Origin: Nitrospirota bacterium
GTDB lineage: Bacteria > Nitrospirota > UBA9217
Direction of reading: 5' to 3'
Assembly (NCBI GenBank): GCA_963840455.1
Contig: CAWIYV010000011.1
Location: 832,001-896,000, forward strand
Length of the DNA stretch: 64,000 bases
Positions 14,296 through 31,348 of this stretch are shown one piece after another. The notes beneath the pieces were generated by a model. It made no database searches. It was not told where the DNA came from and was given only the letters and a program-made list of their open reading frames with translations. A program made the translations under genes and the position numbers. Position 1 is the stretch's first letter. The number at the start of each line of letters is the position of its first letter.

Positions 14296-14576
14296 GATCA
14301 ATCCCCCCTTTCCTACGGCGACGTGGACGGGAGACTGCTTCGACGGGCGCGGAGAACACGCTCGTTGCTCACCCCGGCGCACTGCCCGCCCATTCCCGCG
14401 CCGATGATGATTATGGATCTGTCTGCCATGAAGTAATTATACGTCAAAGGAGGAGGGGAGGAGGTGAAATCTGAAAACGTCAAAAGAATCAAGGGAGATG
14501 AGATACGGCAAAAGGTAAGACCCGTGCCCGGTAAAAGACCTTGATCCAGATGGGTGACCCTAAGGTGTTCCCAAGC

Positions 14577-15386
14577 CTATCTCAAGACAAGTGAAATAGC
14601 CCCGGTCGAGCATGCCGTACGACACAATCCGCACCCGAAGCATTGCTGCGGGTCGATATGCGCGTGAGATCCGTTGCCGTGTTTGTGGCTGTTGATCGCC
14701 TTGAAATTGCATGCAGCATCGCACATACCGCACCCGGTGCAGAGCGACTCGTCCACCCGGGCCACATGCTCTGCCCGCGCCATGATCTCGACCGTTGTGC
14801 GGGAGAGGGTCAGCATGGCAAGACAGTCCTCAGGCCGGCAGTTGCAGATCGCACCAATGAACGGGGTCATCATGGTCCAGATGGTATGGACCGAGCCCTG
14901 CTCTTCCATGGCCGTCATCTGGGAGATCGCAGCCTCCGGGGTGAGCGGCTCAAGCCCTTCGTCCGAGGCCTTGCCGAAGTACGACATGTCGATGCCCTGG
15001 TACCACGCCTCGGGTCCGTAGCTTATGGCGTAGCAGCAGCGCTCCTCTTTCTTCCCGATGTTCCACCGGCAGGCGCACGGCATGCGGACCACGGTCCTGG
15101 CCTTGCTGACCACGTGCCCGATCTCCTCGATAGGCAGGACCTGGCCGAAGTGCTCGGCCTTGGCCTTGGCGACCATGGCCTCGGCAACCGCGCGCGGCAG
15201 TTTTCCCTTTTTACGGTAAATGGTCTCGAGCCTGCCCAGGGTTTCGAAACCATCCGCGAACGCGGACGTGAGAAAGCCTTCGATATATCGCCGCCGGTTG
15301 AGATCGGACAGAAGGTCCTGTCCGTAATTCGCGGCGTTCTTATACCAGATCTTTCCTTCCCCGTGCTTGGTACAGAATTCACACAT
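14577..15386 (-). CDS. 4Fe-4S dicluster domain protein
   Basis: CTGCGMCDAAC and CFGCGLCRTAC plus N-terminal Cys motifs. Confidence 0.85.
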   Translation of the reverse strand: MCEFCTKHGEGKIWYKNAANYGQDLLSDLNRRRYIEGFLTSAFADGFETLGRLETIYRKKGKLPRAVAEAMVAKAKAEHFGQVLPIEEIGHVVSKARTVVRMPCACRWNIGKKEERCCYAISYGPEAWYQGIDMSYFGKASDEGLEPLTPEAAISQMTAMEEQGSVHTIWTMMTPFIGAICNCRPEDCLAMLTLSRTTVEIMARAEHVARVDESLCTGCGMCDAACNFKAINSHKHGNGSHAHIDPQQCFGCGLCRTACSTGAISLVLR

Positions 15387-15613
15387 GGCGTATTGTAACT
15401 ACAGAAGGCGCAGATGTATACATTATTTTGGCAGGACGGCGACGTGGGTAAAAACTATCCTAAGGAGAATGGCGAAATACAAGACGTGACCCTATAAGGC
15501 TCTATTCAGTGCAACAAAAGAGACCTGATCCTAAGTGTTCGCAATTTGTGACTAGTACAAATAACTACAGATTCATGTCTGACCCCAAACACCTACCACA
15601 ATGCTCCTAGTTG

Positions 15614-16327
15614 CTAAGCCCACATCTCCATCCTGAGCCCATTCCGATCTTCCGTCTGAGGACCTAGTACGCGGGCGCTGCCTGATAAGACCCTCCTGGC
15701 TGTCCACAATGCGGCAAAAGCGTCGTTCAGATCGTCACGTTTGAAATCAGCGCCGGACATTTCTGCAAGTATCTTGGACCGACACGCAGGCCACTCACCG
15801 TCAATGAGACATTCGCGCTCAGCCCTGCCATCGGGCTTGGATTTTTTATACAGCATTGGTTTATAGTTATTCCATATGGCGAAACACACTTCCGGATGAA
15901 CTTCACGAACCCTCTGCTGAAGCGAAGGCTTCGCACTGAGAACTGCATCGACTTCATCTATTTTTGGAAGGATTGCAAAGGACTGCTTCGATAGAGCGCG
16001 GCCGTCAATCTTCCGATGTGTCTCACAAGCCGTATGGTAATCTTTTATGGAGATCACACTGCGAATGGGTGCCGAAAAGACACTGCTGGCACGAGGACGG
16101 CCAAGCAGGTCGCGGGCGGCCTTGTCGCATTGTCGTTGCCCACTTTCCGACAAACCAATCGGAACATCAATGGCGATTATTGCAGCCGTAGTGAGGCCAT
16201 CAAGCAATTCATTAAAAGTCTTGAAGACCCGTCCAGTAACCGTAGCGTCAATTTCTTCTATGCACAGCCAGCCTCCGTGACAGCCATCAATACCGGCTAT
16301 ATGTGCTTTTGGAGTATATGAATTCAT
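15614..16327 (-). CDS. DUF429-like predicted RNase H-fold nuclease
   Basis: GIDGCHGGW, IDVPIGL, EVHPEVCF and DDLNDA motifs. Confidence 0.8.
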   Translation of the reverse strand: MNSYTPKAHIAGIDGCHGGWLCIEEIDATVTGRVFKTFNELLDGLTTAAIIAIDVPIGLSESGQRQCDKAARDLLGRPRASSVFSAPIRSVISIKDYHTACETHRKIDGRALSKQSFAILPKIDEVDAVLSAKPSLQQRVREVHPEVCFAIWNNYKPMLYKKSKPDGRAERECLIDGEWPACRSKILAEMSGADFKRDDLNDAFAALWTARRVLSGSARVLGPQTEDRNGLRMEMWA

Positions 16328-16338
16328 AGCACGAGAAC

Positions 16339-17007
16339 CTAATTCTGGATCTGCAACCACCTATCTATGTCAGCCCTTATCTGTTTCAATTGTCCGTGTA
16401 TCTGAGCAGATGAAAAATGATATATCTCTTTGACCATATTCCCGTTGATCGATCCGGCAAATCGCCGCCCCGATTGCTCCGTACCGCTTAGCCACGCGAA
16501 AAGAGGCTGGTTCTTCTGTATCCATCGCATATCACTTAGAACGCCGCTGGAGACAAAGAAGAGCTTGTGCCCGCCACCGCTGATCAGACGGTCAAGATAA
16601 GCCAAATGTAACGGCGAGAACAGGTCGAAATATTCCTGGCGCCCTTGCGTTTTGTTCCCTATGGTCGGGACATCGAGGAGCTCCAGGAATGATATGTGCT
16701 TAGCGTGATCCGGGCTAATGCCCAGCTTGCTGAAGTTCCTGTGGAACGGGACACCGTCCCCGTTTCGTTTGAATGGGTACTCCGGCAGGAGAAACGGATG
16801 ATGACACCGATGTCGCTGCCAGAAAGCTACGCCGTCAGCATGATATTCGAGAATGCGCTTGAAGAAAGGCTTGTTGGAGACTTCAGGCGAGTAATTCGCA
16901 TCGGAACTTAAGAAGATGATCGAAGCGCTTTCCGGCGCTTGCCCTTGAAAAGGCCTGTTATGAAAAAGATCGTCCAGGTCTAAAGATGGATGCTTTTGGA
17001 ATTTCAT
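16339..17007 (-). CDS. Hypothetical protein
   Basis: 222-aa ORF co-oriented within the island. Confidence 0.7.
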   Translation of the reverse strand: MKFQKHPSLDLDDLFHNRPFQGQAPESASIIFLSSDANYSPEVSNKPFFKRILEYHADGVAFWQRHRCHHPFLLPEYPFKRNGDGVPFHRNFSKLGISPDHAKHISFLELLDVPTIGNKTQGRQEYFDLFSPLHLAYLDRLISGGGHKLFFVSSGVLSDMRWIQKNQPLFAWLSGTEQSGRRFAGSINGNMVKEIYHFSSAQIHGQLKQIRADIDRWLQIQN

Positions 17008-17062
17008 GTTGGAAGGTGTTCCATGATAGATTAAATCAGCAACTCGCCAATTTGTTTTAACA

Positions 17063-17563
17063 CTAATTTGTTTTTAATATCCGCCAATTATCACGAAATT
17101 TCACCAAATCAATCGGCGAAACGGCTGCGTGCGTTGACTCAGGATTCCTTGGTCGTCTCCCTCCATGTTCGCCGAGCCATTTACTCTGATTTTTGAAAAT
17201 AATATTTTGTAATTGTGCCTGCTTGAAGATATAAAACTCGTCGCCACCTCGTGAATCAGCCAGTTTAATATAAATACAAATCAATTTAGAATAAGGAAGT
17301 CGCTTTTTCCCGTTTATCTTCTGGATGCCACTTGGTGTTATCGTAATATCTAAGAACTTCGCGGCGTCAAACTGCCAGCTACCACCTCTAATCGTTTTCA
17401 CTTTTATTGGAGTGGTTTTGTATTTATCGTTTACCGCAAGGATATCAAAGTATGGCACATTACCTGTAAAAGAAGTTGCAATAAAACCACGTCTGGATAA
17501 CTCAGCACAGACTAGATATTCACCAATAGCTTTTGCAAGATGCATTTCTCTGCCTGTTGCCAT
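17063..17563 (-). CDS. PD-(D/E)XK-fold nuclease-like protein
   Basis: GEYLVCAELSRRG..FDILAV..IKVKT. Confidence 0.7.
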   Translation of the reverse strand: MATGREMHLAKAIGEYLVCAELSRRGFIATSFTGNVPYFDILAVNDKYKTTPIKVKTIRGGSWQFDAAKFLDITITPSGIQKINGKKRLPYSKLICIYIKLADSRGGDEFYIFKQAQLQNIIFKNQSKWLGEHGGRRPRNPESTHAAVSPIDLVKFRDNWRILKTN

Positions 17564-17622
17564 GTATCACCTCTCTGTGCGTTTTGTATTTTTTTCTCTT
17601 ATAACCTAGACAAACGTTTTAA

Positions 17623-18559
17623 TTAACACATTTCCCTAAACTGTTCATAACGAATCGTTAACAGTTTTGGATCAGGTCGTAGAGCAATCGCCTTAGGAAC
17701 AAAGATACTTTGACCATGAAGTGCCTGAATAGCATGAGCTAGTGTTGGGCCATCCTTTTCTCGCAGAATATCTGGACGCACCTCCAGTTTATAATCCGGT
17801 CGGATACCGATGAACCTGCGATCGAACGCGCTATGATGGAGCGTACAAAGAGCGATTCCATTACGAACAACAGGCCTCCCTTCTGGATGAGAATCAGGAA
17901 TAATATGCGCTGCTTCCAACATCTCTTCATGTCGAAACCGACAGAAAGCACATTGTCTTCTGTATGCTTCTAGCACCCGTTCGCGAAAGGATTGTTGATG
18001 TAATCGGACACGAACGGATGACGTTATATAACTTCGACGGGCATCTTCTTCTGAATCATGCACACCAGCTGCAACTGCACTATCACCACCAAACGATACG
18101 TGTCGTTCATCATCCACTGCAACAGTAACCGTCAAATTAGTTGCATCATCACCTACGACATAGACTGGCCACACCGCCATGTACTTGCCGGGTAATACCA
18201 AACAAGTATACGAGAGGAATGCGATGCTGCATTGCCATTCGCAAACCTCGGTTCTCTCGATGCTCAGGATCATTCCCACGATATCGATACATTAGCAGTT
18301 TATCGGCAACTTGTTTATCATTATAAGGGCTGTTTGGAGTAGTTGTGATAGATAGCGGAATATGCCCAAGAGCCTTAGGTATAAAGATTCCCTGCGGACC
18401 AAGCAAAGGCACGCGAATGCCATCAAAGGTAAAGCCGGAGGCAAGAAGCTCTCGTGGAAGAACATCACCATGGAGGGCAACTTGCTCTAATAGCCATGCA
18501 AATGCTGCCGCTCGTATTTGTCTATCGTGTTCGAGATCCATATATACCACCGACATCAA
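17623..18559 (-). pseudogene. HNH restriction endonuclease-like gene, frameshifted near 18193
   Basis: Two overlapping ORFs join as LVYLFGI/PGKYMAVWPV; C-terminal CAFC, AAHII, NGIALCTLHHSAFD. Confidence 0.8.
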
Positions 18560-18957
18560 GGTGAGCGCTGATATTGTCCTAAATACGCATCCAGCACGGG
18601 ACGATCAGCCTCAGCCCAATCGAGTTCGTGAAGCTTCTCTGGCTGAAGCCACGTAAAAGCCTTATGCTCGTGAAGCTTTATTTCACCGGCTGTGATTCTG
18701 CAAACAAAGGGGTAGAGAGTAATAATAAAGGTAGGATATTGGTGTGTTGTCGGGGCGAGAGACCGAGATATAGCTATGGCAATACCAAGTTCTTCATGTA
18801 ATTCACGCTTGAGGCATTCATCTGGCTGCTCCCCGTCGTTGATCTTTCCGCCTGGGAACTCCCACTTCAGGGGTAAGCTCATTGCCTCGCTACGTTGAGT
18901 TGAGAGCACCTTGCCGTCTTTTTCTATGATTGCACAGGTTACGTGAATGTGTTTCAT
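18556..18957 (-). CDS. NUDIX (MutT-like) pyrophosphohydrolase
   Basis: WEFPGGKINDGEQPDECLKRELHEELG Nudix box. Confidence 0.92.
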   Translation of the reverse strand: MKHIHVTCAIIEKDGKVLSTQRSEAMSLPLKWEFPGGKINDGEQPDECLKRELHEELGIAIAISRSLAPTTHQYPTFIITLYPFVCRITAGEIKLHEHKAFTWLQPEKLHELDWAEADRPVLDAYLGQYQRSP

Positions 18958-19043
18958 TAAGCCGCTAGTTGTATAAATAGTCTGCTTTTAACTGCATTCA
19001 AACGCAATTCCTAACCCTAAAGACCCCATGGTTGAAAAACCCA

Positions 19044-20433
19044 CTAGAGCAAGTCCAGTTGGCCGCTCGCAATCTTCTTCTTTTTGTAGTGTTTCAATAA
19101 AGCATTTACCTTTTCGTATTTTGAGTGGACACTACCATCAAAATGATTTCCGTGTACGATCTTAATAAATTCCTCTTTTTGCGTTGGCGATAATGCTGAT
19201 ACTTGTTTCTTCCATGCAACAGCTCCGTTGGATTTGTGCTTATCTCTATAAATAATGTAATTGTCTGGCATGAGAATTAGCTTCTTAAACTTATCAACAT
19301 TTTTACCAAACGCAGCCTCAAAGAATTCTCTTCTCGGGCTGACGACACCATGAGTAGCATGGAGAATGCATTGAATGCCTCGCAAATAACGTGCATTCCA
19401 ATGCTCGCCTACATACTTACGATCTTTGTTTTTAATCGGGATATACTTCATTGGAAATGAGAATATTTTCGTACCGAGGCGCTCATTTAACATTACATTA
19501 ATGCGCAAGCGTTCATAGAAATCTTCTGGTTTATCATGAAAATTGTAGAGGATGTAATTCGACAGGTTAAGCATTCCAAACTCAGCAGCCCACTCTATTT
19601 TCTGTATATACTGCTCCTTCATACCAATATGATCAAAAGCAATTCTCAATGGTTTGATAGGAAGCTCCGAGAGTCTTTTCATCTTCTCCTTTGTCAGCTT
19701 CCTCATATCAACGCCTTGATTGAAATCAACATGCCGCTCCTTCTTATTTAATTTTGCCCCTTTATAAAAACCTGCCTTTTTAATTTCATCTACAATGTCG
19801 TCAAATCTATCTGACGCCAGCACATTATTATCCAACAATAGCAAATCCGTCATCTTTCCATACTTCTTATCGATTTGTTGAATTTGCTTCAACAACGGAA
19901 TGTACTCAACATATTTTGGTTCAAGTGTTGGCACTGCACAAAATTCACAATGCCTGATGCAACCTCTAGTCATGTATGAAAAATAAGCGTCATTGGCAGG
20001 ATATTTGTATTCTATTTCTTCGAGAATGCTATAGTCAGGTACTAAATTGTCTATTCTATAATCGTAAGGCAGCTTAATCTTTCCCTTTTCATTCAACAAA
20101 CCCACAACCGGTTTGAAACCTGTTTCTTCTTCAATTTCCTGTAACATGATAGTCGCCATAGGACCGCCAATATAGAGATTCTGTCGGATCTTTCACGCTA
20201 TATTCGTAATATTTTATCGTCTTTATTGTTTCGGCCCAATAGAAACTGAACAGAGTTGTGATATATATTCTGTCCCAGGCTTGTTCTCTTATTTCAGCGT
20301 TTAAGCCTTTAATAAAGCGGACGTGCTCTCCACGCTCCTTATGAAAGGCGGCTATTTTCATAAGACCAAGCGGTGGATACTTGTTTTTATATGCAGGTTC
20401 AACAAGTAATATATGACTCTTTCTTTTCTTCAT
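19044..20433 (-). pseudogene. Radical SAM protein with a B12-binding-like N-terminus, frameshifted near 20184
   Basis: N part YPPLGLMKIA, C part RGCIRHCEFC (CxxxCxxC); frames join as KDP/QNLYIGGPMAT. Confidence 0.82.
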
Positions 20434-22742
20434 AGAGGGTGACTTAACCGAGCCAAAATTTCTTCCCATTTATTCCTTTCTTCAATATCTTTTGGTTCAT
20501 TTCTAGCGATCAAGTTAAAGAGAGAACGAAATAAGTTACTCTCTGCATTTGAAGTTGTTTGAATCGCCAAACCAGTTGACAATAAATACGCAATGTAACC
20601 ATTACTTAATGTTTGTACAGATTCGAAAAGATCATCCAGCTCTGCCGACTTGCGGATGGCCTCTTCAAGATAGATTCTCTTATCCAAATCCGTTACATGT
20701 GGCAATTCCTCTCGCATCATTGCAGTACTTATTCCAGTCGCTGCTTGCCAGCATCTTTCCTCATCTGAACATTGCCTGATCAAACCGTCGACAACGGTTC
20801 TCATATCACTTATTGCCTTCTGATATTGTTTAATGTAGCTGCCTATTGTCGCTTCGTTTGTGCTTAGTACAACATCCTTGACCGCCCCACCATTCGCAAG
20901 AAGAACATCTATCCTTTCATCATGACTCAGCGAAGACCAAACACTAGCGACAGTCACGTTTCTTAATGAATCTAGAATCTGGGACGCTTTCTCAATGTCA
21001 TATGTCCTAAAAGCAACTGCGATGTCGTGTAATAGCCCCCCGCTTTTTTGATAAATGATCACGTCCTCAGCTGACTTAGACTCATCTGGCTCATCGAAAC
21101 CCCGCATCCCGCAAAAAGTTGCGAAACTTGTAAATATATCAACGTCCTTATATTGTGTATTCATCATATAATATTTTAGAAAGTCGGCAATGAGTCCCAG
21201 ATTGCGACCTGAGGCGACGACTTCCAGAATGTCATTTGGATTGTCAATAATACAAGATAACGCTATTAGGCGACCGTTAATGTATAGTTCTTTTTCTTCT
21301 TGATCCCAAGGATTTAAATCAAACGTAGCAGCGGCGACATCCCTAATCAAAGTGTTCCGCGTCGCAGGCCCCAGATGGAAACCGGACTTAACGCTTTCAT
21401 AAAATACCTTTTTATAAATGCCGAGGCCATCCCTTATGGGCAATGTCCTCAGAATTTCATCTTTCGGAGCATGAGGCGGCATTCGATCTTCGGAATAATA
21501 CTTTATGGTTCTTTGCGATTCGCCTTCTTCAACGTCACTGTAAGATATTTGATCCCATTCGACTGGCTCGCCCGAAAAATAGCACATGCATTTCCTGGAA
21601 TCTAACAGAACAAAAAGCCCGATATCGCCAGGCAAGCATTTTATAGAGGGATGTATTTTCTGTGCTGTAGATTGAATTGCAGCTACAAGAGGACCTCTAA
21701 TGTCATTAAGCTCTTCACCAAATTCAGATACGATGCAGAGATCTGGCTTCCAATTCTCGATAGTGCTGATAGTGCCTAATATGCCAAGGTGCTTTTTGTA
21801 ATATTCTTTCTTAGTTATTTCCTCATTCGCGAATTCACTTCTCTTAATTGTGCCTATGTGTGCAACTAACACGTCTACTGCGTCCGTTGCATTTTCCACC
21901 CTCGTATGAACACTATGCTCCCTTAAGAACGCTTCATTTAGGTCTGCGATGTCGAAATCCCAGCCAGTATCGCCCGTTAATAACAAATTTCTACCACTGA
22001 CGCGAAAACATGCCCCAAGTGAATAATCGGCTGTTATAATTTCGTGATGCTTCGTATATATTGTTAGAATCTCGAAATCAAGATCATCTCTACCAGGCAC
22101 TCTTATTGATTGACCGGGGCTCATAACCGTTACTTTGCCGATATAATTCTTAAAATCCGTATTTGCGAGGTCCAAGTAATTAGAAAACTTCTTAAAGGAA
22201 CCAACATTTAGAAACAGATCTACCTTCTTTGAGGTTCTATGGTTAAGATATTTATCGTTCCGTTGATAAAGCAGACTAAGTAAAGACTCAAAGTCATTGG
22301 TGTGATCGTTATGTGCGTGAGTAATAAAGATGCCGTCAATATCATCTAGGCAAAAGCCGGCCAAACCGAAATTATGAATAAAGTTATATCCGGGGTCAAT
22401 TACGAGCCCGTAGCCGGATTTCAGGCTATTCTCTTGCCCTTGCACATATAAGAAATAACCGCCACCAATACTATACTGGTTAATTCTCTTTATTTGATCA
22501 GATTCTATTGGCAAACTAGGCGTGTATGAATTCCACTTTCGCAGAACGACAAAGAAACTCTCACATCCTAAAGGTATTCGTCGATATTGCGAAATAAAAG
22601 CCGCTCTCTTTTCCTCAAGCTGTTCGACAGATTGTAAAAAATCGTAAGGTTCCCCCTGCGAAAGCCGTTCTCTGATACCCGGCATCTCGTTATTTAGGAA
22701 ATGCAATAAATCTTGCCTACGGTTTTCTCTAGTTTTATACAT
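20430..22742 (-). CDS. MBL-fold metallo-hydrolase, 770 aa, with a long C-terminal extension
   Basis: VIDPG, THAHNDH, LLTGDTG and HLG motifs. Confidence 0.85.
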   Translation of the reverse strand: MYKTRENRRQDLLHFLNNEMPGIRERLSQGEPYDFLQSVEQLEEKRAAFISQYRRIPLGCESFFVVLRKWNSYTPSLPIESDQIKRINQYSIGGGYFLYVQGQENSLKSGYGLVIDPGYNFIHNFGLAGFCLDDIDGIFITHAHNDHTNDFESLLSLLYQRNDKYLNHRTSKKVDLFLNVGSFKKFSNYLDLANTDFKNYIGKVTVMSPGQSIRVPGRDDLDFEILTIYTKHHEIITADYSLGACFRVSGRNLLLTGDTGWDFDIADLNEAFLREHSVHTRVENATDAVDVLVAHIGTIKRSEFANEEITKKEYYKKHLGILGTISTIENWKPDLCIVSEFGEELNDIRGPLVAAIQSTAQKIHPSIKCLPGDIGLFVLLDSRKCMCYFSGEPVEWDQISYSDVEEGESQRTIKYYSEDRMPPHAPKDEILRTLPIRDGLGIYKKVFYESVKSGFHLGPATRNTLIRDVAAATFDLNPWDQEEKELYINGRLIALSCIIDNPNDILEVVASGRNLGLIADFLKYYMMNTQYKDVDIFTSFATFCGMRGFDEPDESKSAEDVIIYQKSGGLLHDIAVAFRTYDIEKASQILDSLRNVTVASVWSSLSHDERIDVLLANGGAVKDVVLSTNEATIGSYIKQYQKAISDMRTVVDGLIRQCSDEERCWQAATGISTAMMREELPHVTDLDKRIYLEEAIRKSAELDDLFESVQTLSNGYIAYLLSTGLAIQTTSNAESNLFRSLFNLIARNEPKDIEERNKWEEILARLSHPL

Positions 22743-23785
22743 TACAGTAATCCCTTAGATGCGAGAGATGTGTTGAACTTTTCTGCCAAGATATTTACCC
22801 CTTTAAAACCGCCGGCAGACTTATCATAGTAATCTACATTTGCTTGCCTCATTGCTGACGCATAGGCGTGAAAATCAACTCTATCGGCTTTCTTCTTGTC
22901 TAGATTTGCAACTAATATGAAGCGTAGTGTTTTGACCAATGCATTAAATCCAACGCTCTTTAAAAGTATTGTTGAATTATTCCACTCCTGTGCAAAATTC
23001 TTTCGAACGGCAGCAAAATATCTTTCGAGCAAATGCACTTTCTCCTGCATAGAGTAACTACTGCCTAGTAATTCCAAAATATGATATTTTGTTGTTAATG
23101 CTTCAACCAAAGATGCTTGGCTTACATGGCCGGTTCCTATCCCCAACATTTTTATCATTCCATACAGCGGAGATTCGACATTGCTGTTTAAAGCAGATAC
23201 GATTTCATGAGCTTCCTTATACTTAACAAAATCCGGGTCTTTGTTAAAAGCAAGTAAGTCATATACCAACGATTTGCTCACGGGTTTTTGATAGTAATTA
23301 ATCCTAGTGAATATTTCGGCGATCGTTGGTAGCTCCAGGCCGAAGTAGGCAGCAACTACTAAGTCTAGCTGATTACCTTTACTATATTTTGATGCGAACG
23401 CTTTTAAGCGATGTTGTCCATCGATAACGTAAGCCGATTTTTCTTCAACGCTTATAGTCAACAAACTCTTTTTTGGGTCGTAAAACTCGTCCTTGTACGC
23501 GAGGGGAATATTAAGAATTATTGAATTGGGGAAGAACGGGTGCTCAGATGAAATAAATTGGCCAATCTCCTTATCCCTATCTTCTTTATGAGCTCTTTGA
23601 ACGCCAAGAGGAGAATCTGTTCTTGACAGGAATTTCGCAATGTCGAGCACAATATTCGATGGCAGTGAAAATATGAAGAAGTCATTTTCCTTCGAAAAGT
23701 CGTCTTCATCAAAGAGAGTTTCTTTAGAGCGCTGTTTAACTTTAATAGCAGCTGCCCGTATATTTATGAATCCACCTGCTGGCAT
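22742..23785 (-). CDS. DGQHR domain protein (DndB/ParB superfamily)
   Basis: GVQR, FPNSIIL, VIDGQHRL and IFTRINYYQKPV motifs. Confidence 0.92.
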   Translation of the reverse strand: MPAGGFINIRAAAIKVKQRSKETLFDEDDFSKENDFFIFSLPSNIVLDIAKFLSRTDSPLGVQRAHKEDRDKEIGQFISSEHPFFPNSIILNIPLAYKDEFYDPKKSLLTISVEEKSAYVIDGQHRLKAFASKYSKGNQLDLVVAAYFGLELPTIAEIFTRINYYQKPVSKSLVYDLLAFNKDPDFVKYKEAHEIVSALNSNVESPLYGMIKMLGIGTGHVSQASLVEALTTKYHILELLGSSYSMQEKVHLLERYFAAVRKNFAQEWNNSTILLKSVGFNALVKTLRFILVANLDKKKADRVDFHAYASAMRQANVDYYDKSAGGFKGVNILAEKFNTSLASKGLL

Positions 23786-23794
23786 GAAACCTCC

Positions 23795-24823
23795 TTAAGA
23801 ATCCAAGCCAATTTCGCGACAGAACCTTGCGAATTTTCTATAACATTGTTGTAATTCGGCCTTCTTGTTCTTGTTCTCTTCCATTTCTTCTCTTACTTTT
23901 TTAATCTCCGACTCTTCAAGCAATTCCCTGAACTCTCTCACCTTTTTATAGAATCGATCAACCTTCTCAGGCTTATGTTCATACAGGACATGCTTGCCCT
24001 CATCAAACGCAAACTTTGGATCTCCCTCCGTAAATGCTTTCATTGCTTTTTTATGACTCAAGATTTTAGGGAGGTCCCTAACATTCTGTGCCTTCTTTAA
24101 TCTATCTTCCCTGACCCACCCAACAAATTCATCAAGAAATTCCGGCGTGTCTTGCGTTCTTTTTACAAGCTCTTTTTGAAGATAAAAAGCCTCAAAATAG
24201 CTGTACTTCTTTAACTCGTCACGTGAGCCATTAACCAGTTCTTCATTTTTATCATTGGCAAGATATTTTTTAGACATTACTTCATATGCGTTCAACATGG
24301 CATCAATGGACTTCCTTTGCTTACCAAGCTGTTTCGCAATTACGTCAGGACTTTTTTTTAGGGTCTTGATCATTTTGTATATATAAGCTGCCTTTTCATA
24401 TGCGTCCCACTCCGTTTTCCCCTTAATATGAAACGTTCCTAAAATATAGAAAAGTTCATCTTCCGTTACATCTTCCTGTAGAATCCTCGCTTTGATAAAT
24501 TTCCATGTCTTTTCTTTTGGATATTTCTTATTCAACCTTCGAAATGCGCAAAGACGGGTATTCCCTTCAACTACCTTATTCCCAAGCACATATATTTCGT
24601 CTAAGAGACCTTTGTTTTCTTCCAGATCTTTAATTCTCTCTTTAGTAGAATCCAGTTTCAATAATTCTTGCTCGATGAATTCCTGTGTTACTCTCTTCGG
24701 TGGATTTCTACTCACGATGTAGTTGATGCGCGGGTTTTCTCGATAAAACTCGACGTTATAAATATCGACGTCTTTAATCTCATAAAATATTTCTCTGCCT
24801 AATACTGTAATCGATTCTTGCAC
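23795..24823 (-). CDS. ParB/Srx-like N-terminal domain protein
   Basis: ENPRI, VVEGNTRL and WDAYEKA; paralogous to 26657-27674. Confidence 0.8.
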   Translation of the reverse strand: MQESITVLGREIFYEIKDVDIYNVEFYRENPRINYIVSRNPPKRVTQEFIEQELLKLDSTKERIKDLEENKGLLDEIYVLGNKVVEGNTRLCAFRRLNKKYPKEKTWKFIKARILQEDVTEDELFYILGTFHIKGKTEWDAYEKAAYIYKMIKTLKKSPDVIAKQLGKQRKSIDAMLNAYEVMSKKYLANDKNEELVNGSRDELKKYSYFEAFYLQKELVKRTQDTPEFLDEFVGWVREDRLKKAQNVRDLPKILSHKKAMKAFTEGDPKFAFDEGKHVLYEHKPEKVDRFYKKVREFRELLEESEIKKVREEMEENKNKKAELQQCYRKFARFCREIGLDS

Positions 24824-24827
24824 CGCG

Positions 24828-26257
24828 TTAGCCCCCCAAAATAGTCAATAGTTCTTTTTTGTTTAAAAGAAACTCAGAACTGTCGGGCCGCAATTCTTTT
24901 CGATCACTTTGCACAAAGGCAGCAATATCTGTTTTAACCTCAATAACCCTGTCAATGTATTCGTCTATTGTATGTTTTCCGATTATTTTATAGATATTAC
25001 ATGGTTTAGTTTGAGATATTCTATGTATTCTGTCCTGCGATTGCAAGTAATCAACAAGATTAAAATTTCTATCTAGATAGATTGCATTGTTAGCCCTTGT
25101 TAATGTCAATCCCTCTCTAGCTGCTGCAGGATTCGCTATCAGAACTTCATTCTTATCAGACTCTTGAAATGCTTTAACAGCTTCAGCTCGCTCTTTTATC
25201 GGCACATCGCCGTGTATAATTAGCGGATTATATTTCTTGTACCTTGATCTTAAAGTCGTTATATTTTCTACAAAGCTGGTCCAAACAATAGCCTTCTCTC
25301 CTCTAGAGGTTATCTCCTCCAAAAGGTCATCCAACGTGTTAAATTTGGCAGGCGTGCCATTGTAGCTTTTATCGACCATATGTGGATTACTTGCAATTTG
25401 AGTTAGCCTTAATAGCTTTTTGAGGATATTATCAGCTTCATCAATTACCCTATTCCCATCCATGTCTTGGACTTCGATACGCAATTCTTCACGTAGTTTG
25501 TTGTATTGTTCGAGTTGTTTGCCGGAAAGCTCGACGTATACATTTGTATATTTTTTCTCGGGAAGCTCAAGAACATCATCTTTACAGCGACGCAATGAGT
25601 GCTGCGAGATTATAATTTTCAACTCATCAAGCTGCTCTGTGTAATCATCATTCTTTTCATTGTATTTAGATTTAAATTCGCTAAAATCATCACCAAGAAG
25701 TTTGCCTCCATCTAGAAAATAATATTGCGACCACAAATCAATTGGCTTATTAGCGACCGGTGTTCCGGTAATAATAATTCGTTTTTCAGAAAAGGGCCGA
25801 AGAACAAATAATGCCTGAGCTGTTTTTGTTGCTGGATCCTTAATGCGTGCTGATTCATCAGGACTATTGCAACCTGGCGACTCTTACAAAATCGCTTAAT
25901 TCGTTCTAGCTCAGCGACGACACCTTCGTAGTTAGTTATATAGAAATTTGCCCCGGTTAGGAATTTATATCGTTTTTCTTTTTCTCCACCTCGCAACACT
26001 ATTGGAATGAGAAATGAGTGCTTTGCAACCTCCTGCTCCCAGTTATACAGCAAAGACATTGGCGCCACAACGAGGACGCCTTCTAACGCACTGTTCTTCA
26101 TTGAGAGACACAGTGAGTCTATTACTATCTTGGTTTTTCCTAACCCCTGCTCATCAAATAGGGCGACCTCTTGTTTATCGTATAGGTAGTTGATCGCCTC
26201 TATCTGGTGTGGCATTGCTTGCGTCTTGGGCTTAAATATTTGCTTTTTTCTAATCAT
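24828..26257 (-). pseudogene. SNF2-family helicase, frameshifted near 25860
   Basis: DEQGLGKT Walker A; restoring one base gives VLDESARIK..ITGTP; C-terminal GLTLT and QSQDRIHRISQ. Confidence 0.88.
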
Positions 26258-27674
26258 TTATTATTTCATCAGGTACATAAAGGATCGTGATATTTGTAGA
26301 CAAATGCAATCCAATTTTTTCCAAGCCTTTCAGAATTGTCTTTTCAACAGACTTAGGAACTCCTATATAGACATCGCATTTCATCCCATTCAGTTCGAGG
26401 TTAGCAAAATCTCTTAACTGCTCGAAAGTTCGCGTGTTCATGATATCATTTTCTGTTTTTGCCTCGCCAATGCAGATCTGACCGTTCTCCTTTACACCCA
26501 TTGCATCCGGCCTATGTCTTATAATCGTAGGTGGCATCGGACATGCTTCTCCAAATAATCCCGGATATGTTCCGTCTACGCATGATATTGTAGCTCCGTC
26601 TTCGCGCATCTTCTTTATGACAAGTCCGAGAATAAATTGATGTCTATTGCCCGCCATTACGAAATGGTTCCGATATTCTTTAAAAAGATTAGTAACAGTA
26701 TCATGTAGTTTTTTTAGAGATTCGATTTTTGCGGGCTGCAATCCCCGTTTTATCTCATCAAGCTCGCTAAACGGTATGCCTTCCAATCCCACGATAACGT
26801 CTTCTACTTTTTCAAATAGCTTTGATTTTGCCGCAGGATTCTTTTGTTCTAGTTGGTCAAGTGCCGCCTGAAAGTTATCGTCCATAAGAGCTTGTTTCGA
26901 TTGTTCATCATTTAGCACCATGGGAAGTTTTCGAATGTCTTCACCTCGTTTGAATTTACCATCACCAACCCATTCGCAAAAATCCATTAGTGATACTTTC
27001 CCATCTTTTACAAGTCTCTTTAACTCCCTGTTTTTTCGAAATTCCACGAAGTAGCTGAACTTTAGCCGTTCTGATGGCTTATTGTATTTAGGAAGATATT
27101 GCTCTTCCATGTCTGTATAAGCTTGTATGTTATTTCTTATTTCATTGGCTCTTAACTTCGTTAGCTGCTCAAGACGCTTTAGCGAGTAATCCTCGTCTGT
27201 ATGGAGGCGGTATAGTTCCCTTGCTTTTTCATACGCAGCCCACGGCGTTGCTCCAAATAGATGTTTTTCCAGCCTTATGAAGTTAATTACGTTTCGATCT
27301 ATCTTATACGGCAACTCGTACGCATCAATTGTTTTCCACTTGTCATCGTTTACGTACTTTTCTGATAGTTCTTCGTATATAAAAGACCTCGTATTACCCT
27401 CAATCACAACATAATAATTATCCTTCGGCACTACCCAAATCGGGTCATAGATACCGCCGTTCAGCTCTATATGCTCTTTCAGCTTTTCGTACTGATCATT
27501 ACCTTCAGCAAGAGCGAACTTTATCTTATCTTGAGTTACATTATCATTCAGACGGGTATCGAGAAAATATTGGATACGGGGATTTTCAATATCGAGAATG
27601 AGTTGCTTAATAGGAATCTTAGTTCGCTTAATTTCAGTTGATACTCCGTCTAGATTAACAGTTATATTATCCAT
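26250..27674 (-). CDS. ParB-like protein (about 26657-27674) apparently fused to a PD-(D/E)XK nuclease (26250-26657)
   Basis: ENPRI, VIEGNTR and WAAYEKA in the N part; RPDA..IGEAK in the C part. Confidence 0.8.
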   Translation of the reverse strand: MDNITVNLDGVSTEIKRTKIPIKQLILDIENPRIQYFLDTRLNDNVTQDKIKFALAEGNDQYEKLKEHIELNGGIYDPIWVVPKDNYYVVIEGNTRSFIYEELSEKYVNDDKWKTIDAYELPYKIDRNVINFIRLEKHLFGATPWAAYEKARELYRLHTDEDYSLKRLEQLTKLRANEIRNNIQAYTDMEEQYLPKYNKPSERLKFSYFVEFRKNRELKRLVKDGKVSLMDFCEWVGDGKFKRGEDIRKLPMVLNDEQSKQALMDDNFQAALDQLEQKNPAAKSKLFEKVEDVIVGLEGIPFSELDEIKRGLQPAKIESLKKLHDTVTNLFKEYRNHFVMAGNRHQFILGLVIKKMREDGATISCVDGTYPGLFGEACPMPPTIIRHRPDAMGVKENGQICIGEAKTENDIMNTRTFEQLRDFANLELNGMKCDVYIGVPKSVEKTILKGLEKIGLHLSTNITILYVPDEIIND

Positions 27675-27809
27675 GTATGCTCCTTGACAAGGAAACCTTA
27701 TATTGGTCAGGACCGTTTGGGGTCAGGCCTGAAAAGATGAAATGTTGCCCGCCCCCTCGTTTTACGCTTCGGCCCCCATAGGGTCACCCATTTAAAGGGC
27801 ACCGTCAAG

Positions 27810-28191
27810 CGAAAACAGCTATCTTGTGGCGAGAAACGAAACGTTTCTCGCCTAGCCTTGTCGTTATCTTCATCTTCACCATTGCCGCAGTTTCATTCGG
27901 TTTCGGCGTCAGTCTTCACTGCACCAGTCACCCATCGGGATTAAGGTCATTGGTGGAGCTCTTTTATCCATGACCCTTTCCGCCTTTTGGCGGACCAGAA
28001 AATCTTCGGTTCCATGCCGTGTCCAGGAGTTCGTACAAGTCTTATGGTTGTTAACCAGCCCCAAGATGGCTCGCGGTATGGGCAGTAAAGATGCTGATAA
28101 CGCTATAAAAGGGTGGGACGGATTACCAATCAGGTCTCGTGGTTTTACCAACCCTAAGGCAGGTTCACCGTCCCAGCCAGCTTGTGAACTT
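27810..28191 (-). ncRNA. Candidate bridge/seekRNA of the full IS copy
   Basis: Reverse complement of 6279-6660. Confidence 0.6.
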
Positions 28192-29214
28192 TCATTGCGT
28201 AAAGAGCTTCTCCGGCATAAAGGACACTCCATCTCTCATGATGTAATACGCTGCTCGTGCCAGTTTGTGTGACAGGGCTTGATGCGCTATCATTGCGTTG
28301 GTCTTTTGCATCTTTCGCTGGTAAAATGCCCGGGCCTCCGGATAATGGCGCCGGGCAATCTCGGCAGCTTCGGAAAAGGCCCACGCCAGGTACTTGTTGC
28401 CGCTCTTCTTGTTTCCTTTGCCCTTTTTCTTATCGTTGCTGATCCATTTTGTTGAAACCTTTCGGCAGTAGGAGCAGTAGTTGCCGACTTGCGCAAAACG
28501 GCTGATGGGGCCGGTTTCTAGCATGATCGTAAGTCCCAACGTTTTCCCCACACCTTGCATGGTGAGGAGCTTCGTGTATTGTTCGCGCAGCTCCATTCTT
28601 TCTTCGACGACGTTTTCAACGGCTTTGATCTGGCGCGTCAGAAAATCTATGGACTCCTTGCTGATCTTGCCAGCCAATGCCAGGTCCTCGTTCTGTTCAA
28701 GAAACGGCGCAACGCGATCTGTATTCAATGCCTTGACGTCATTCGTCTTGATCCGAAACCCATTGTTGCGGCAAATAATGTTCTGCAAGCTGATGATGAG
28801 CGAAGTCCTGAGCTTTACGAGATGACTTCTTTTGCGTAACAAGTCGCGGATCGGTCTATCTTCTTTCGGGTAAATGTAGCCTTCGGGCAGGATTCCGAGC
28901 CGCAGCATCTCGGCCAGCCAGAAGGCATCATGCTGATCGTCTGAATACTTGAGTCCCTTATATTGTTTAATCTCCGTAGGGTTGGCGAGATGAACCTTGT
29001 ATCCTTCCGCCATGAGTGCATCCACCAACCAGTACCAGTTGTACGTGGACTCGATGACGATGCCGGTAATTGCATCAATGTAGGGTGCGAGGGCGGAAAG
29101 AATTTGTTCCGAATCATTGGGGAGCTTCCTCTTGAACACCCGTTTACCAGTTTCATCGATGATCGCCAGATAACTGTTGCTTGAATGCAGATCAATTCCT
29201 GTGTACAATCGCAT
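28192..29214 (-). CDS. IS110 family transposase (DEDD recombinase)
   Basis: GIDLH, IEST, SDDQHDA, MQGVG, GNKYL and KLARAAY motifs; 340 aa. Confidence 0.95.
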   Translation of the reverse strand: MRLYTGIDLHSSNSYLAIIDETGKRVFKRKLPNDSEQILSALAPYIDAITGIVIESTYNWYWLVDALMAEGYKVHLANPTEIKQYKGLKYSDDQHDAFWLAEMLRLGILPEGYIYPKEDRPIRDLLRKRSHLVKLRTSLIISLQNIICRNNGFRIKTNDVKALNTDRVAPFLEQNEDLALAGKISKESIDFLTRQIKAVENVVEERMELREQYTKLLTMQGVGKTLGLTIMLETGPISRFAQVGNYCSYCRKVSTKWISNDKKKGKGNKKSGNKYLAWAFSEAAEIARRHYPEARAFYQRKMQKTNAMIAHQALSHKLARAAYYIMRDGVSFMPEKLFTQ

Positions 29215-29313
29215 ACAGCACCTCCTGGGATGAGATTGGTCTCTTCTCCCAAGAGCATATCAGAGCTTAAACGTTCTGGTATGCTCTGGAGGTGCCCTTT
29301 ATATGGTTATACA

Positions 29314-29765
29314 GGTCTCTTTTGTTGCATTTCCCTCTTCCCCGCACCTTCGGACGCGGTCCCCTTCCCCTGCGAACCTCTCGCGGTCGGGTCGATACTG
29401 TCTCCCTTTATTGATCCATCTACCCCGCACCCCGTTTCACTCCTTCAGTATGCCTCATCAACCAAAGCAGCCGCTCATTTGAATGCGACGGCCGGATGGA
29501 GCTGGGCTGTTTCGAAGGTGATCAGTCCCGCCTGGACGAGCGGGTCCTGGTTCACGACCTTGTCGGCTTCCTCCCTCGTCTCCGCCCTGACGACGATCAT
29601 ACCGCCATGGTCGCCCCACTTGCCGGCCTGCACGAGGACGCCCGCTGCGAGCTGCTGCCTGGCCCATTCCCGGTGCAAGGGGATCGCCTTGCTGATCTGC
29701 GCCCGGTCCGCGTTGGATTTGAACTTGTTGATCGACATGAAGTACATGCTTGTATCCCTCTTGGG
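29314..29765. repeat. Block of about 450 bp duplicated at 32466-32917
   Basis: Near-identical sequence including the YciI gene and its downstream region. Confidence 0.9.
29475..29747 (-). CDS. yciI: YciI family protein
   Basis: HREW, AGKW..GGMIVV and DPLVQAGL motifs. Confidence 0.85.
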   Translation of the reverse strand: MYFMSINKFKSNADRAQISKAIPLHREWARQQLAAGVLVQAGKWGDHGGMIVVRAETREEADKVVNQDPLVQAGLITFETAQLHPAVAFK

Positions 29766-29992
29766 ACCCCTCAGGATCAGGTCTCTTTTGTTGCATTTCC
29801 TTCTTGCCGGGAGCCCGCGAGGGTCACGATACTTCCGACACGGTGACAGGGAGACGCGGAGACACGGGGATAAGCAGAAGTCGTCCGAATCTCAGAGAAC
29901 CCGTTACGCCGCCGCCTTGCGCGCTCTGTACTTCAGGGTCATGGGGCACGGGCCAGCGGTTCGATCCAGTTCTGCTGCGACCGGCAGCCTGG

Positions 29993-30382
29993 TCAACGGG
30001 CGCCGATCTTCTTTTCGACAAATGCCCGCAGCGCCCGCACCATGTCCAGAGCGGCCGTGCGGTCAAGTTTCGTCTCCACGGAAATGTCTTCATAGCGCAA
30101 CAGCGTGCCGTAGGGTGTCAGCAGGTCGAGGTCGGCGAGGGAGGACGGCAAGGGGTGTCCGGCATCCGTTAAAAGGTCCATCAACAGCCGTAGATTGTGC
30201 GTGCGGGGAAAGTGAACGCTGAATTCAGAGAGCAGCGCCTTGAGGAGCTTTTCCGAGGCCTGCTGGGCATGGAATCCGAATATCTCATTGCTGATCCGCT
30301 CCCGGTCGACCACTTCGGCGAGAAGCGCCTCGTCCTCGACGGCCTTGCGGACGAACAGGAGCGCCTGTTCATGCTGCCTCAT
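29993..30382 (-). CDS. HEPN domain toxin
   Basis: FHAQQASEKLLKA, PRTHNL and RY motifs. Confidence 0.88.
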   Translation of the reverse strand: MRQHEQALLFVRKAVEDEALLAEVVDRERISNEIFGFHAQQASEKLLKALLSEFSVHFPRTHNLRLLMDLLTDAGHPLPSSLADLDLLTPYGTLLRYEDISVETKLDRTAALDMVRALRAFVEKKIGAR

Positions 30383-30686
30383 ACAGCACCTTGCCTTCGC
30401 GGAGAGCGTCAAAATACACGTTGCCGGGCGTGGTAGCCCAATACTCGAACGTAGCCTGGCTTACCACGAGGAGGTCGACGGAGATGCGGAGCGGGCTCAG
30501 AACGCGGTTCAGGCGTGCCATTTCAGCAACGCGGTCCTTGACATCGGCCTCCACGATCAGCAGATCGACGTCGCTGTCCTCGCGCGGCTCGCCCCTGCCG
30601 TAGGAACCGAACAGAATGATCTTGCGCGGACGGGCCGCGTCCGAGAGGATCCTCGCTGCCTCCGCGATCTTTTCCTGTGCGACCAT
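30369..30686 (-). CDS. Minimal nucleotidyltransferase (MNT) antitoxin
   Basis: LFGSYGRGEPREDSDVDLL. Confidence 0.9.
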   Translation of the reverse strand: MVAQEKIAEAARILSDAARPRKIILFGSYGRGEPREDSDVDLLIVEADVKDRVAEMARLNRVLSPLRISVDLLVVSQATFEYWATTPGNVYFDALREGKVLYEAA

Positions 30687-30918
30687 GCTCTCACGGCCTC
30701 CTGACCGGTACACCTTTTTGTAGCATAACGGGACGCCAAATACAAGGCGAAACCGGCAGCCACTGCGATCTAAAATCATGACACGGGGACGCGGTGACAC
30801 GGAGACGATACTTCCGACAGGGAGACGCGGTGACACGGGGACACGGTGATATGACCCCCTGAGGGTCAGTTCTTTCCTCTCGAAATTCCCCGTTTGCCCA
30901 CCTGCCTTTTTCTTGAGC

Positions 30919-31146
30919 TCAGCAGCAGGAACTGATCTCAGCGGTTATGTCTATGACCGGGATGTCTTGCAGAAATCGCTTGAGTTTCTGTTCTTCCTGC
31001 GGGGTTATGGACGGATAGGACAGGACTTCCAATTCGGTGATAAAAGAAACGGAGAATTCGCCCTCGGGCAGGGCATCGACGGGGATTTTCTTTCCAATCA
31101 GGTAGAGCAGGATATTGGTGTCGAGCAGGAACCTATTTCCACTCAC
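30919..31146 (-). pseudogene. PIN/VapC toxin, 3' truncated
   Basis: LLDTNIL and SFITELEVL present, but only 75 aa with the C-terminal acidic motifs missing. Confidence 0.7.
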
Positions 31147-31348
31147 TCCTTACTCTCCTTTGATAGCTCAACGGTTCTTCTTCGATATGCACGATCCCGG
31201 CATAGTCTCTCAATTTTTCCCTGACCATGCCGTGCTGTCCCGGCTCCAGGATCCGCTCGATCTTCGTCCATTCAGCGTAGTCGATGATGACTTCCACCGG
31301 TTTGTTGTGCTCGTCCAGCACGATCTTTTTATGGATTGTTCCGCTCAT
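31133..31348 (-). CDS. Putative antitoxin
   Basis: Short ORF (VLDEHNKPVEVII..YQRRVRSEW) overlapping the PIN gene start. Confidence 0.65.
   Translation of the reverse strand: MSGTIHKKIVLDEHNKPVEVIIDYAEWTKIERILEPGQHGMVREKLRDYAGIVHIEEEPLSYQRRVRSEWK

Follow-up and report, generated by a model that had tools for sequence, protein, structure and literature searches.

The window analysed here is a stretch of 64,000 nucleotides (nt) from the Nitrospirota bacterium assembly GCA_963840455.1 (contig CAWIYV010000011.1, positions 832,001 to 896,000 of the forward strand), and at its positions 19044-27674, on the minus strand, lies an operon that an earlier note, made from the sequence alone, had put forward as a candidate undescribed DNA-modification or defence system. 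In order of transcription the operon encodes a ParB-like protein (ParB1) together with a PD-(D/E)xK nuclease, an SNF2 ATPase, a second ParB-like protein (ParB2), a DGQHR protein, a metallo-β-lactamase (MBL)-fold hydrolase and a radical S-adenosylmethionine (SAM) enzyme (rSAM). The description of an AT-richer, tightly coupled minus-strand run is correct: the open reading frames (ORFs) are packed tightly, with junctions that abut or overlap by 1-9 nt in the ORF list, and the fraction of guanine and cytosine (GC) is 0.37-0.42 over 19-28 kb against 0.55-0.65 across most of the 64-kb window, the means being approximately 0.39 in the island and 0.58 in its flanks. The junctions consist of an 8-nt overlap (26250-26257), a 4-nt gap (24823/24828), a 9-nt gap (23785/23795) and a 1-nt overlap (22742); between the MBL and rSAM genes the overlap is 4 nt (20430-20433), given an rSAM start at an internal ATG, and the ATG at 20433 is likely to be the true start. 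The coordinates are collected in Table 1.

Table 1. Genes of the operon and the adjoining transposase gene, in window positions (aa, amino acids).
Feature	Position	Strand	Remarks
ParB1-nuclease fused ORF	26250-27674	-	474 aa
ParB-like protein 1 (ParB1)	26673..27674	-	residues 1 to ~334 of the 474-aa ORF; invariant NPR, EGNTR
Small PD-(D/E)xK nuclease	26250..26657	-	last 135 residues of the 474-aa ORF; invariant H, D, E-x-K
Minimal SNF2 ATPase	24828..26257	-	two frames, 25712-26257 and 24828-25736; ~476 aa if intact
ParB-like protein 2 (ParB2)	23795..24823	-	342 aa; full-length paralogue of ParB1
DGQHR (DndB/DpdB-type) protein	22742..23785	-	347 aa; motif intact; first gene of an optional cassette
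MBL-fold hydrolase	20430..22742	-	770 aa; Lactamase_B_2
Radical SAM enzyme (rSAM)	19044..20469	-	two frames, 20131-20469 and 19044-20159; ~450-460 aa if intact
IS110-family transposase	28192..29214	-	flank, outside the system; DEDD_Tnp_IS110 4e-19, Transposase_20 2e-11 (Pfam)

The rSAM is the organising element, or hub, of the loci described below, and it is common to Pbe-like and other architectures. In an alignment of 52 family members the three cysteines of its CxxxCxxC motif (C155, C159 and C162) are invariant, and Pfam Radical_SAM (PF04055) was found at an E-value (E) of 0.01 or better in 51 of the 52; the fragment in the window scores 25.2, below the cut-off of 29.5, and two intact orthologues score 30.1 and 34.9, above it. 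B12-binding (PF02310) was matched in 18 of the 52 members, with a best E of 2e-4 that lies below the Pfam cut-off. Intact orthologues in genomes are single frames of 445-462 aa, and relatives are named 'cobalamin-binding domain-containing protein' by NCBI, the RefSeq annotation being otherwise generic. Of 1.84 billion representatives at 50% identity, 506 match the rSAM at E<=1e-30 and only 3177 at E<=1e-3; for clusters at 90% identity, the count at E<=1e-20 is at least 7999 (of the 8000 scored). The family, which is abundant in anaerobic and environmental metagenomes, is both distinct and large.

Both ParB-like proteins of the window carry the motifs ENPRI, EGNTR and W.AYEKA that the earlier note had listed. 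They are paralogues, as it had stated, and the similarity extends over their full length (hhalign probability 100%, E 1.5e-49). NPR and EGN(T/S)R are invariant in alignments of 20 ParB2 and 13 ParB1 sequences, the latter with EGNTR. Matches to named families are partial: Pfam ParB_N was found in 2 of 13 ParB1-family members (best E 2e-5) and HTH_ParB in 3 of 20 ParB2 members (best E 0.0096), the PADLOC model PD-Lambda-5_A matches only the N-terminal ~170 residues of ParB1 (E 5e-7), and PDC-M38A matches part of ParB2 (3.4e-8). Profile searches of the PDB returned weak ParB chain matches around the EGNTR region of ParB1 (E ~1), and an RpoE chain as the best match of ParB2 (E 0.034). When the ParB1 and ParB2 profiles were compared with the DGQHR protein by hhalign, EGNxR was aligned with the DGQHR motif, yet the comparison was not significant (E 0.22 and 0.083). 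The claim of three ParB-fold proteins thus holds only in part: it is firm for the DGQHR protein, for ParB1 it has the two ParB_N matches, and ParB2 is tied in only through its paralogy to ParB1.

The small nuclease is a separate ORF of 135-145 aa in 18 other loci, and in an alignment of 18 sequences the H, the D (HRPD) and the E-A-K (GEAKT) are invariant. No Pfam or PADLOC family matched this putative PD-(D/E)xK nuclease. The domain that the earlier note had recognised has these residues, but its fusion to ParB1 is not a property of the family: it occurs only in the window and is due to one extra base, and we rejected it as Rosetta-stone evidence. In the related locus L001 (loci are numbered L001 onwards), the last ~45 codons of ParB1 (5942-6080) are out of frame, with several stops when read straight through, and this gene may also carry an indel.

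Profile searches agree with the remaining assignments of the earlier note, namely a minimal SNF2 ATPase, a DGQHR protein, a 770-aa MBL hydrolase and the CxxxCxxC radical SAM enzyme. Pfam SNF2-rel_dom and Helicase_C were found across the two SNF2 pieces, and intact orthologues are single frames of 475-477 aa. PADLOC gave only generic helicase matches to the pieces (ZorD, DrmD, BrxH and DpdE), those of DpdE to the C-terminal piece going down to 3e-31, together with a weak PbeA match to the N-terminal piece (3.8e-5). The DGQHR protein scores 134.2 bits with TIGR03187 against a cut-off of 58.85 (NCBIfam), and stays below the cut-offs of the equivalog models TIGR04172 DGQHR_dnd_1 (124.1 against 450) and NF041060 DpdB (82.4 against 300); it also matches Pfam DndB (2e-11) and PADLOC DpdB (7e-28), and its DGQHR motif is invariant in the family alignment.

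The MBL hydrolase matches Pfam Lactamase_B_2 (34.7 against a cut-off of 27) and also Lactamase_B. Its N-terminal ~420 aa form the catalytic domain, and the C-terminal half, present in the long form only, is helical. Eight metal-ligand positions are invariant in an alignment of 18 sequences (H142, H144, D146, H147, H232, D258, H295 and H318, including HxHxDH). A weak match to RNase Z (4.5e-6) and a faint likeness to the cyclic-nucleotide phosphodiesterase Apyc1 were obtained; the PDB profile search returned generic MBL matches and F-BAR matches to the helical half (2e-5), the latter regarded as coiled-coil noise. PADLOC matched neither the MBL nor the rSAM of the window. The catalytic domain belongs to a stand-alone family of 600-1100 aa found in bacteria and archaea (genome loci L005-L053), some 45 homologues standing alone, without conserved neighbours and in many cases fused to TPR repeats.

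Conservation of gene order, proposed by the earlier note as a check, was examined in two collections. One genome per species was scanned with the alignment of 18 full-length MBL relatives, and metagenome contigs were scanned with an alignment of intact rSAMs, which gave 594 pattern matches, 575 of them confirmed, from which the best 80 were kept. Loci were compared by tblastn and by de novo ORF clustering, and the comparison covers 84 rows whose rSAM has 370 aa or more (79 metagenome loci, 4 genome loci and the window). The gene order of the window was found again in 21 loci, with at least two further phyla represented: in metagenome-assembled genomes (MAGs) of a Nitrospiraceae member (L001), of Candidatus Brocadia (L004) and of a Nitrospirota member (L006), and in 18 metagenome loci. 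This arrangement, which we call type A, consists of ParB1, the small ORF, SNF2, ParB2 and rSAM, and accounts for 22 of the 84 rows, window included. Type B, with a large helix-turn-helix protein, a helicase, a small ORF, an ABC ATPase, a protein of ~150 aa and the rSAM, accounts for 40 rows; in type C (11 rows) a DGQHR protein or DGQHR fusion stands directly upstream of the rSAM; and the other 11 rows have a different arrangement or a truncated contig.

Five genes make up the conserved core: ParB1, the small nuclease, SNF2, ParB2 and the rSAM. Both the translocase with its nuclease and the radical SAM enzyme, on which the earlier note had built its interpretation, belong to what is conserved in type-A loci. 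The DGQHR and MBL proteins, which it had counted as members, do not. ParB2 normally abuts the rSAM gene, and the interval between the two in the 22 type-A loci is a direct abutment in 14, DGQHR and MBL in 5 (the window, L001, L004, L006 and L066), DGQHR and a 279-aa protein in 2, and a 212-aa protein in 1, so that DGQHR lies between ParB2 and rSAM in 7 loci; an eighth (L129) has it upstream of ParB1. Since most type-A loci have neither gene between ParB2 and the rSAM, DGQHR-MBL is an optional cassette, inserted at a site that varies. In L064 and L065 a 279-aa protein takes the place of MBL; a reading of it as a degenerate MBL was rejected (hhalign E 0.23), the two being unrelated. The DGQHR-MBL-rSAM triad is also found with other partners (L002, L090 and L098), including different ones beside DGQHR-MBL in a Syntrophomonadaceae MAG (L002), and in L090 it is preceded by genes for a type III methylase, a Res helicase and a nuclease resembling BglII.

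Type B is Pbe-like, with the rSAM as its last gene: L110 has a helicase with a PADLOC PbeA match of 6e-226 and an ABC ATPase with a PbeC match of 1e-175, and its rSAM matches no PADLOC model. Loci of this kind (L074, L077, L081, L085, L102, L103, L108-L110, L117, L121, L125, L130 and others) begin with a conserved protein of ~900-1170 aa, for which Pfam gave only sigma-70 region 4 and RNA-polymerase-alpha-CTD-like matches and PADLOC weak matches to MzaA and PglW. The 2024 reappraisal by Aravind and colleagues (PMC10853773) describes CxC-ABC/DndE/HKD-helicase (Pbe) systems as linked to phosphorothioation genes or cytosine methylases, some having no known modification gene, and its searchable part does not mention an rSAM or MBL partner of Pbe/CxC systems. 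In Pbe-like loci the rSAM stands at the place of these modification genes.

Other partners are ATPases of the GHKL type (L002, L097, L118, L124 and L137, and 17 of 79 loci from a viral collection) and a HerA-like ATPase (L136). Plasmids of cultured alphaproteobacteria (14 records, generically annotated) carry a cluster of PIN-like, ATP-binding, DGQHR, rSAM and ATP-binding genes, for example a Bradyrhizobium plasmid (L153 3221-11203) and Novosphingobium aromaticivorans pNL1 (L154 3075-11119); pNL1 has in addition a second DGQHR gene, of 769 aa, on the opposite strand. The plasmid cluster is a relative of the system that lends itself to experiment. In the rSAM tree of the 84 rows the architecture label changes 21 times, against a minimum of 5 and a mean of 41.2 for shuffled labels; one starred clade of 10 rows mixes type C, B, A and 'other' loci, and the window rSAM lies beside that of L001 in a starred clade of 12 type-A rows. 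Because the tree mixes architectures, the rSAM is a portable module serving different sets of DNA-tracking NTPase and nuclease, as modification enzymes do.

The viral collection gave 561 pattern matches, 539 of them confirmed, and 79 loci were kept; 7 of these are type-A-like, and 72 have no ParB, SNF2, Pbe or DGQHR partners. Named phages carry shorter rSAM homologues (N-domain and core, partial length, 25-35% identity). In the Bacteroides phage LoVEphage (L157 2951-6624) the homologue stands beside Dam methylase fragments and a PAPS-reductase-like gene, in phage phiCT453B (L156 4965-5840) within a replication module, and in Marinitoga camini virus 1 beside HerA and an exonuclease. Such solo homologues resemble the pattern of orphan modification genes.

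The gene set is real and co-occurs elsewhere, but the copy in the window has three frame-changing indels and may be dead. Compared with all four aligned orthologues, an extra base is present near 26677-26688, through which the ParB1 stop is lost and ParB1 is fused to the nuclease; a base is missing at 25859/25860, in motif II (V-L-D-E) of SNF2, relative to all three orthologues in a DNA alignment; and the rSAM carries, again relative to orthologues, an extra base at ~20184 (D-P-[extra base]-Q-N). A search of the own genome likewise returned the two rSAM pieces in different frames. Three 1-nt indels, which include a broken SNF2 motif II and a broken rSAM, suggest that the copy is probably inactive and non-functional, having kept neither the presumed restriction motor nor the presumed modification enzyme; as weak evidence, this double loss is what would be expected of a dying restriction-modification-type module.

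Soil contigs ~85-99% identical to the locus, from two soil-metagenome runs of one study, bear on the ancestral state. A frame-restoring base stands behind 25859 in one contig of each run, and a near-identical contig of one run lacks one base at 26688; the ancestor was therefore intact at these two sites. They cover ParB1, SNF2, ParB2 and part of the rSAM, leaving the DGQHR-MBL region (20484-23651) and the site of the rSAM frameshift uncovered; their loose ends at 23839 and at 20350/20392 were taken as neutral evidence, and a soil relative may have a different cassette at the DGQHR-MBL position.

Sequencing or assembly could have produced the same picture, in which case the operon would be intact here, with three assembly or base-calling errors, and the copy would be functional by the mechanism proposed below. 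Each of the three lesions concerns a single base, and one of them falls where the same base occurs five times in a row; the other ORFs keep their full length and their invariant catalytic residues; and the genome, in 14 contigs, possibly comes from long-read data, which is a guess. We nevertheless consider this account unlikely and real decay probable. Two of the three indel sites are outside homopolymers, and in this assembly the reading frames of rpoB (1387 codons) and rpoC (1390 codons), 8.3 kb together, are unbroken. Moreover, a fourth split gene lies in the same island: an HNH_2 endonuclease gene (17623-18559, minus strand) is divided into overlapping frames of 136 aa (18149-18559) and 218 aa (17623-18279; Pfam HNH_2 3.5e-12), and looks like another frameshifted defence-type gene of the AT-rich segment, suggesting local decay. 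This fourth gene and the unbroken rpoB and rpoC favour decay.

Low GC, the adjoining IS110 transposase and the lack of a comparable rSAM match in 40 related genomes, where the best (G010) gave two separate partial matches of ~1e-32, indicate that the island is of foreign origin and was acquired horizontally; the five genomes of the same genus gave no rSAM match better than 2e-5. The locus is present in two DNA sequencing runs of one study, at small shares of 0.05-0.06, and no RNA run was listed.

Around the operon several further features were observed. Inverted repeats of 35 nt (15510-15544 and 29761-29795; 89% complementary, 14.2 kb apart) bracket the island, and repeat copies of 18-35 nt were found at 15510-15544, 29312-29342 and 29761-29808, with a direct pair 466 nt apart near the IS110 gene; these copies may be the ends of a mobile segment. 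A G-rich unit with a period of 8 nt (GACNCGGN-like) forms arrays at 29837-29879 and 30780-30858, ~930 nt apart, with 3-4 overlapping copies each. Directly downstream of the rSAM lies a MutT-like NUDIX gene (18556-18957, minus strand), and a NUDIX of 34% identity is found ~6 kb upstream of the L002 system (L002 2599-3000); being present only in the window and near L002 and absent from the other 21 type-A loci, NUDIX was rejected as a system member. A promoter and terminator scan gave 28 promoter-like sites against 28.8 expected, Rfam gave no match in 14000-32000, and the window has no tRNA genes.

Gene content, conserved order, the swapping of rSAM between sets of motor and nuclease, and the foreign composition of the island are established. 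We propose, with a probability of roughly 0.45 and from sequence comparisons, that the locus is a copy of a conserved, widespread but unnamed seven-gene system, a restriction-modification-like defence in which the rSAM would mark DNA. The rSAM would be the modification enzyme, installing a covalent self-mark on host DNA by radical chemistry, and ParB2, with DGQHR where present, would act as an NTP-dependent DNA clamp or loader that brings the rSAM to host DNA or activates it there. Enzymes of the class B type typically methylate unactivated carbon or phosphorus; a methyl mark on such a carbon, or on the DNA backbone, would be the reaction typical of this type. In the restriction arm, ParB1 would recruit the small nuclease and SNF2 would translocate, and incoming DNA that lacks the mark would be cut. 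The MBL might be a metal-dependent phosphodiesterase serving as auxiliary effector or processing enzyme, which is the weakest step of the scheme.

In operon loci the rSAM is always accompanied by a nuclease and by proteins able to clamp, scan or translocate on DNA, and the surroundings of rSAM loci are of defence type (type III restriction-modification with BglII in L090, Pbe-like genes, HerA and GHKL ATPases). The invariance of the catalytic motifs in the nuclease, of the rSAM cysteines, of the MBL metal ligands and of DGQHR counts in favour of the proposal. DpdB is a ParB-like ATPase needed for DpdA-dependent base insertion (PMC12839542), and DndB, a DGQHR protein, is discussed in PMC10853773; DGQHR is in these cases a known partner of DNA-modifying enzymes, which counts for an rSAM that marks DNA.

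Several points weigh against this proposal. That the rSAM acts on DNA is a prediction from genomic context. To our knowledge, no restriction-modification-type system has a member of the rSAM superfamily as its modification enzyme. Searches of the PDB gave no significant match to a solved rSAM (best E 0.39 with the single sequence, 0.69 with the profile), so that its subclass is tentative, and B12-binding is matched weakly. The ParB fold of ParB1 and ParB2 is partly shown, by the motifs, the 2 of 13 Pfam matches and the weak PDB matches, and the role given to the MBL is a guess, the wider MBL family having no conserved neighbours. In phages the homologues are only distantly related (25-35% identity over part of the length) and may differ in function. 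The metagenome loci that were kept are the 80 best among 575 confirmed matches to a type-A query, so that the proportions of the architectures are biased and form no census. Finally, the three indels could be assembly errors, one of them in a run of five identical bases, and 'decayed' would then be wrong.

Other functions would use the same genes differently. Viperins and the cobalamin-dependent OxsB act on nucleotides, and the rSAM could, like them, make an antiviral (deoxy)nucleotide analogue or signal in a nucleotide-directed abortive or chain-terminator system; the ParB-family proteins would then be NTP sensors, the MBL, perhaps with NUDIX, would process the nucleotide, and SNF2 and the nuclease would be a back-up effector. 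ParB/Srx-family proteins do bind and hydrolyse NTPs (PMC10853773, PMC12839542), the MBL is weakly similar to RNase Z and Apyc1, and the next gene downstream in the window encodes a NUDIX protein, with its 34%-identical counterpart near the L002 system. We consider this function improbable, however, as the MBL is absent from 17 of the 22 type-A loci and NUDIX from the 21 others; the rSAM is constantly associated with nucleases and DNA-tracking proteins (ParB-like, DGQHR, CxC-ABC with DndE-like, GHKL and HerA) rather than with kinases or genes of nucleotide transport or processing; and the PDB profile search gave a single rSAM-domain chain (E 0.69) and no entry named viperin or OxsB. The same linkage of the rSAM to DNA-tracking NTPases and nucleases would also fit an enzyme that acts on the DNA of the invader, by radical damage or by stripping or changing phage hypermodifications that protect the DNA from the nuclease; there is no separate methyltransferase, and a system with no self-mark at all is conceivable. 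Every architecture, however, already has a dedicated nuclease (PD-(D/E)xK, HKD or PIN-like), it is difficult to see why phages would carry solo homologues of an enzyme harmful to their DNA, and the rSAM stands in the modification-gene slot of Pbe-like loci, so that we hold action on invader DNA to be quite improbable.

A non-immune role, in which the ParB-like proteins and the remodeller would form a DNA-segregation or maintenance module of a mobile element and the rSAM would be unrelated, draws on the ParB-family proteins themselves, on the insertion-sequence and plasmid contexts and on the relatives on conjugative plasmids. It is very improbable: a ParA partner was found in none of the loci examined, the genes are tightly coupled to nucleases, rSAM loci are co-located with type III restriction-modification and BglII (L090), Pbe-like genes, HerA and GHKL ATPases, and the genes are missing in close relatives, as is typical of defence islands.

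Returning to a marking function of the rSAM, a broader idea can be put forward tentatively. The rSAM family may be an unrecognised class of DNA-modifying enzymes whose radical-installed mark, for example a C- or backbone-methylation beyond the reach of ordinary methyltransferases, would serve as self-label for at least four restriction architectures (ParB-SNF2, Pbe-like, DGQHR fusions and GHKL/HerA/PIN); phages might borrow the rSAM as an anti-restriction device, and ParB-type clamps might be its dedicated loaders. If this were true, radical chemistry would join methylation, phosphorothioation and 7-deazaguanine among the self-marks of prokaryotic immunity, it would explain what replaces the modification genes in many Pbe/CxC-type loci that have neither phosphorothioation nor methylase genes, and ParB-like NTPases would gain a new role in loading a modifying enzyme. 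The occurrence of the family on plasmids of cultured alphaproteobacteria, such as pNL1 of N. aromaticivorans, makes the idea directly testable. For this genome alone the significance is modest, the locus being a foreign island with a probably dead copy, and the interest lies in the rSAM family.

The gene set matches no system model in PADLOC-DB 2.0 or NCBIfam, and a full-text literature search found no description of it, the supplementary neighbourhood tables of PMC10853773 being a place where rSAM-linked CxC loci might be listed; the earlier note had put the set forward as a candidate undescribed operon. It had also stated that core genes of the known modification systems are absent: among the eight ORF products of the operon, the part of the window scanned with Pfam, PADLOC and NCBIfam, DndC, DndD, DndE, a cysteine desulfurase, DpdA, DpdC, a methyltransferase and BREX or DISARM core proteins were not found, except for the generic helicase matches to DrmD, BrxH and DpdE. 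Likewise, PADLOC matched no component of Zorya (ZorA/B), DISARM (DrmA/B/C) or BREX (PglX/PglZ/BrxC) beyond SNF2-level ZorD, DrmD and BrxH. Assignment to Dnd, Dpd, Pbe, Zorya, DISARM, BREX, Menshen or PD-lambda-5 was rejected, as defining components are missing in each case.

The likenesses are nevertheless informative. PD-lambda-5, a compact prophage system that combines restriction-modification with abortive infection and consists of two genes (PMC9519451), has a ParB_N-like domain on its modification/restriction protein, and ParB1 matches that domain only; it has a methyltransferase, whereas the operon of the window has none. In Menshen (NsnABC) a ParB-superfamily protein, the ParB-DUF262 sensor NsnA, works with an ATPase and a nuclease effector, and the rSAM cluster on plasmids has PIN-like and ATP-binding genes, but no PADLOC Nsn model matches the window proteins and, as described in the abstract of PMC12065111, Menshen has no rSAM.

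From Dpd the window differs in having neither DpdA (TGT) nor DpdC and a DpdB score of 82 against 300 bits, and the neighbour of DGQHR is here the rSAM (with the MBL); the two resemble each other in a DGQHR protein beside a presumed DNA-directed enzyme and in an SNF2 ATPase similar to DpdE. With Dnd it shares the DGQHR/DndB-type protein (TIGR03187 above cut-off), but it has no DndA, C, D or E, the score with DGQHR_dnd_1 is 124 against 450 bits, and DGQHR is optional. The rSAM itself recalls class B radical SAM enzymes, with an N-terminal B12-binding-like domain followed by the CxxxCxxC core, but it shows no significant similarity to a solved rSAM, and cobalamin binding is only predicted; we know of no class B radical SAM enzyme with DNA as its substrate.

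Pbe (PbeABCD: HKD-helicase, small protein, CxC ABC ATPase and DndE-like protein) is linked to the window in two ways, as the same rSAM family ends the Pbe-like operons (40 of 84 rows) and as a scanning NTPase and a nuclease-helicase stand beside a presumed modification gene. The window nevertheless has no PbeA, PbeC or DndE-like protein, scanning would fall to SNF2 and the paralogous ParB1 and ParB2, and a PD-(D/E)xK nuclease stands in place of HKD. The parts of the system are known domain families, and its logic resembles that of Dnd, Pbe and Dpd; the set itself is so far unnamed.

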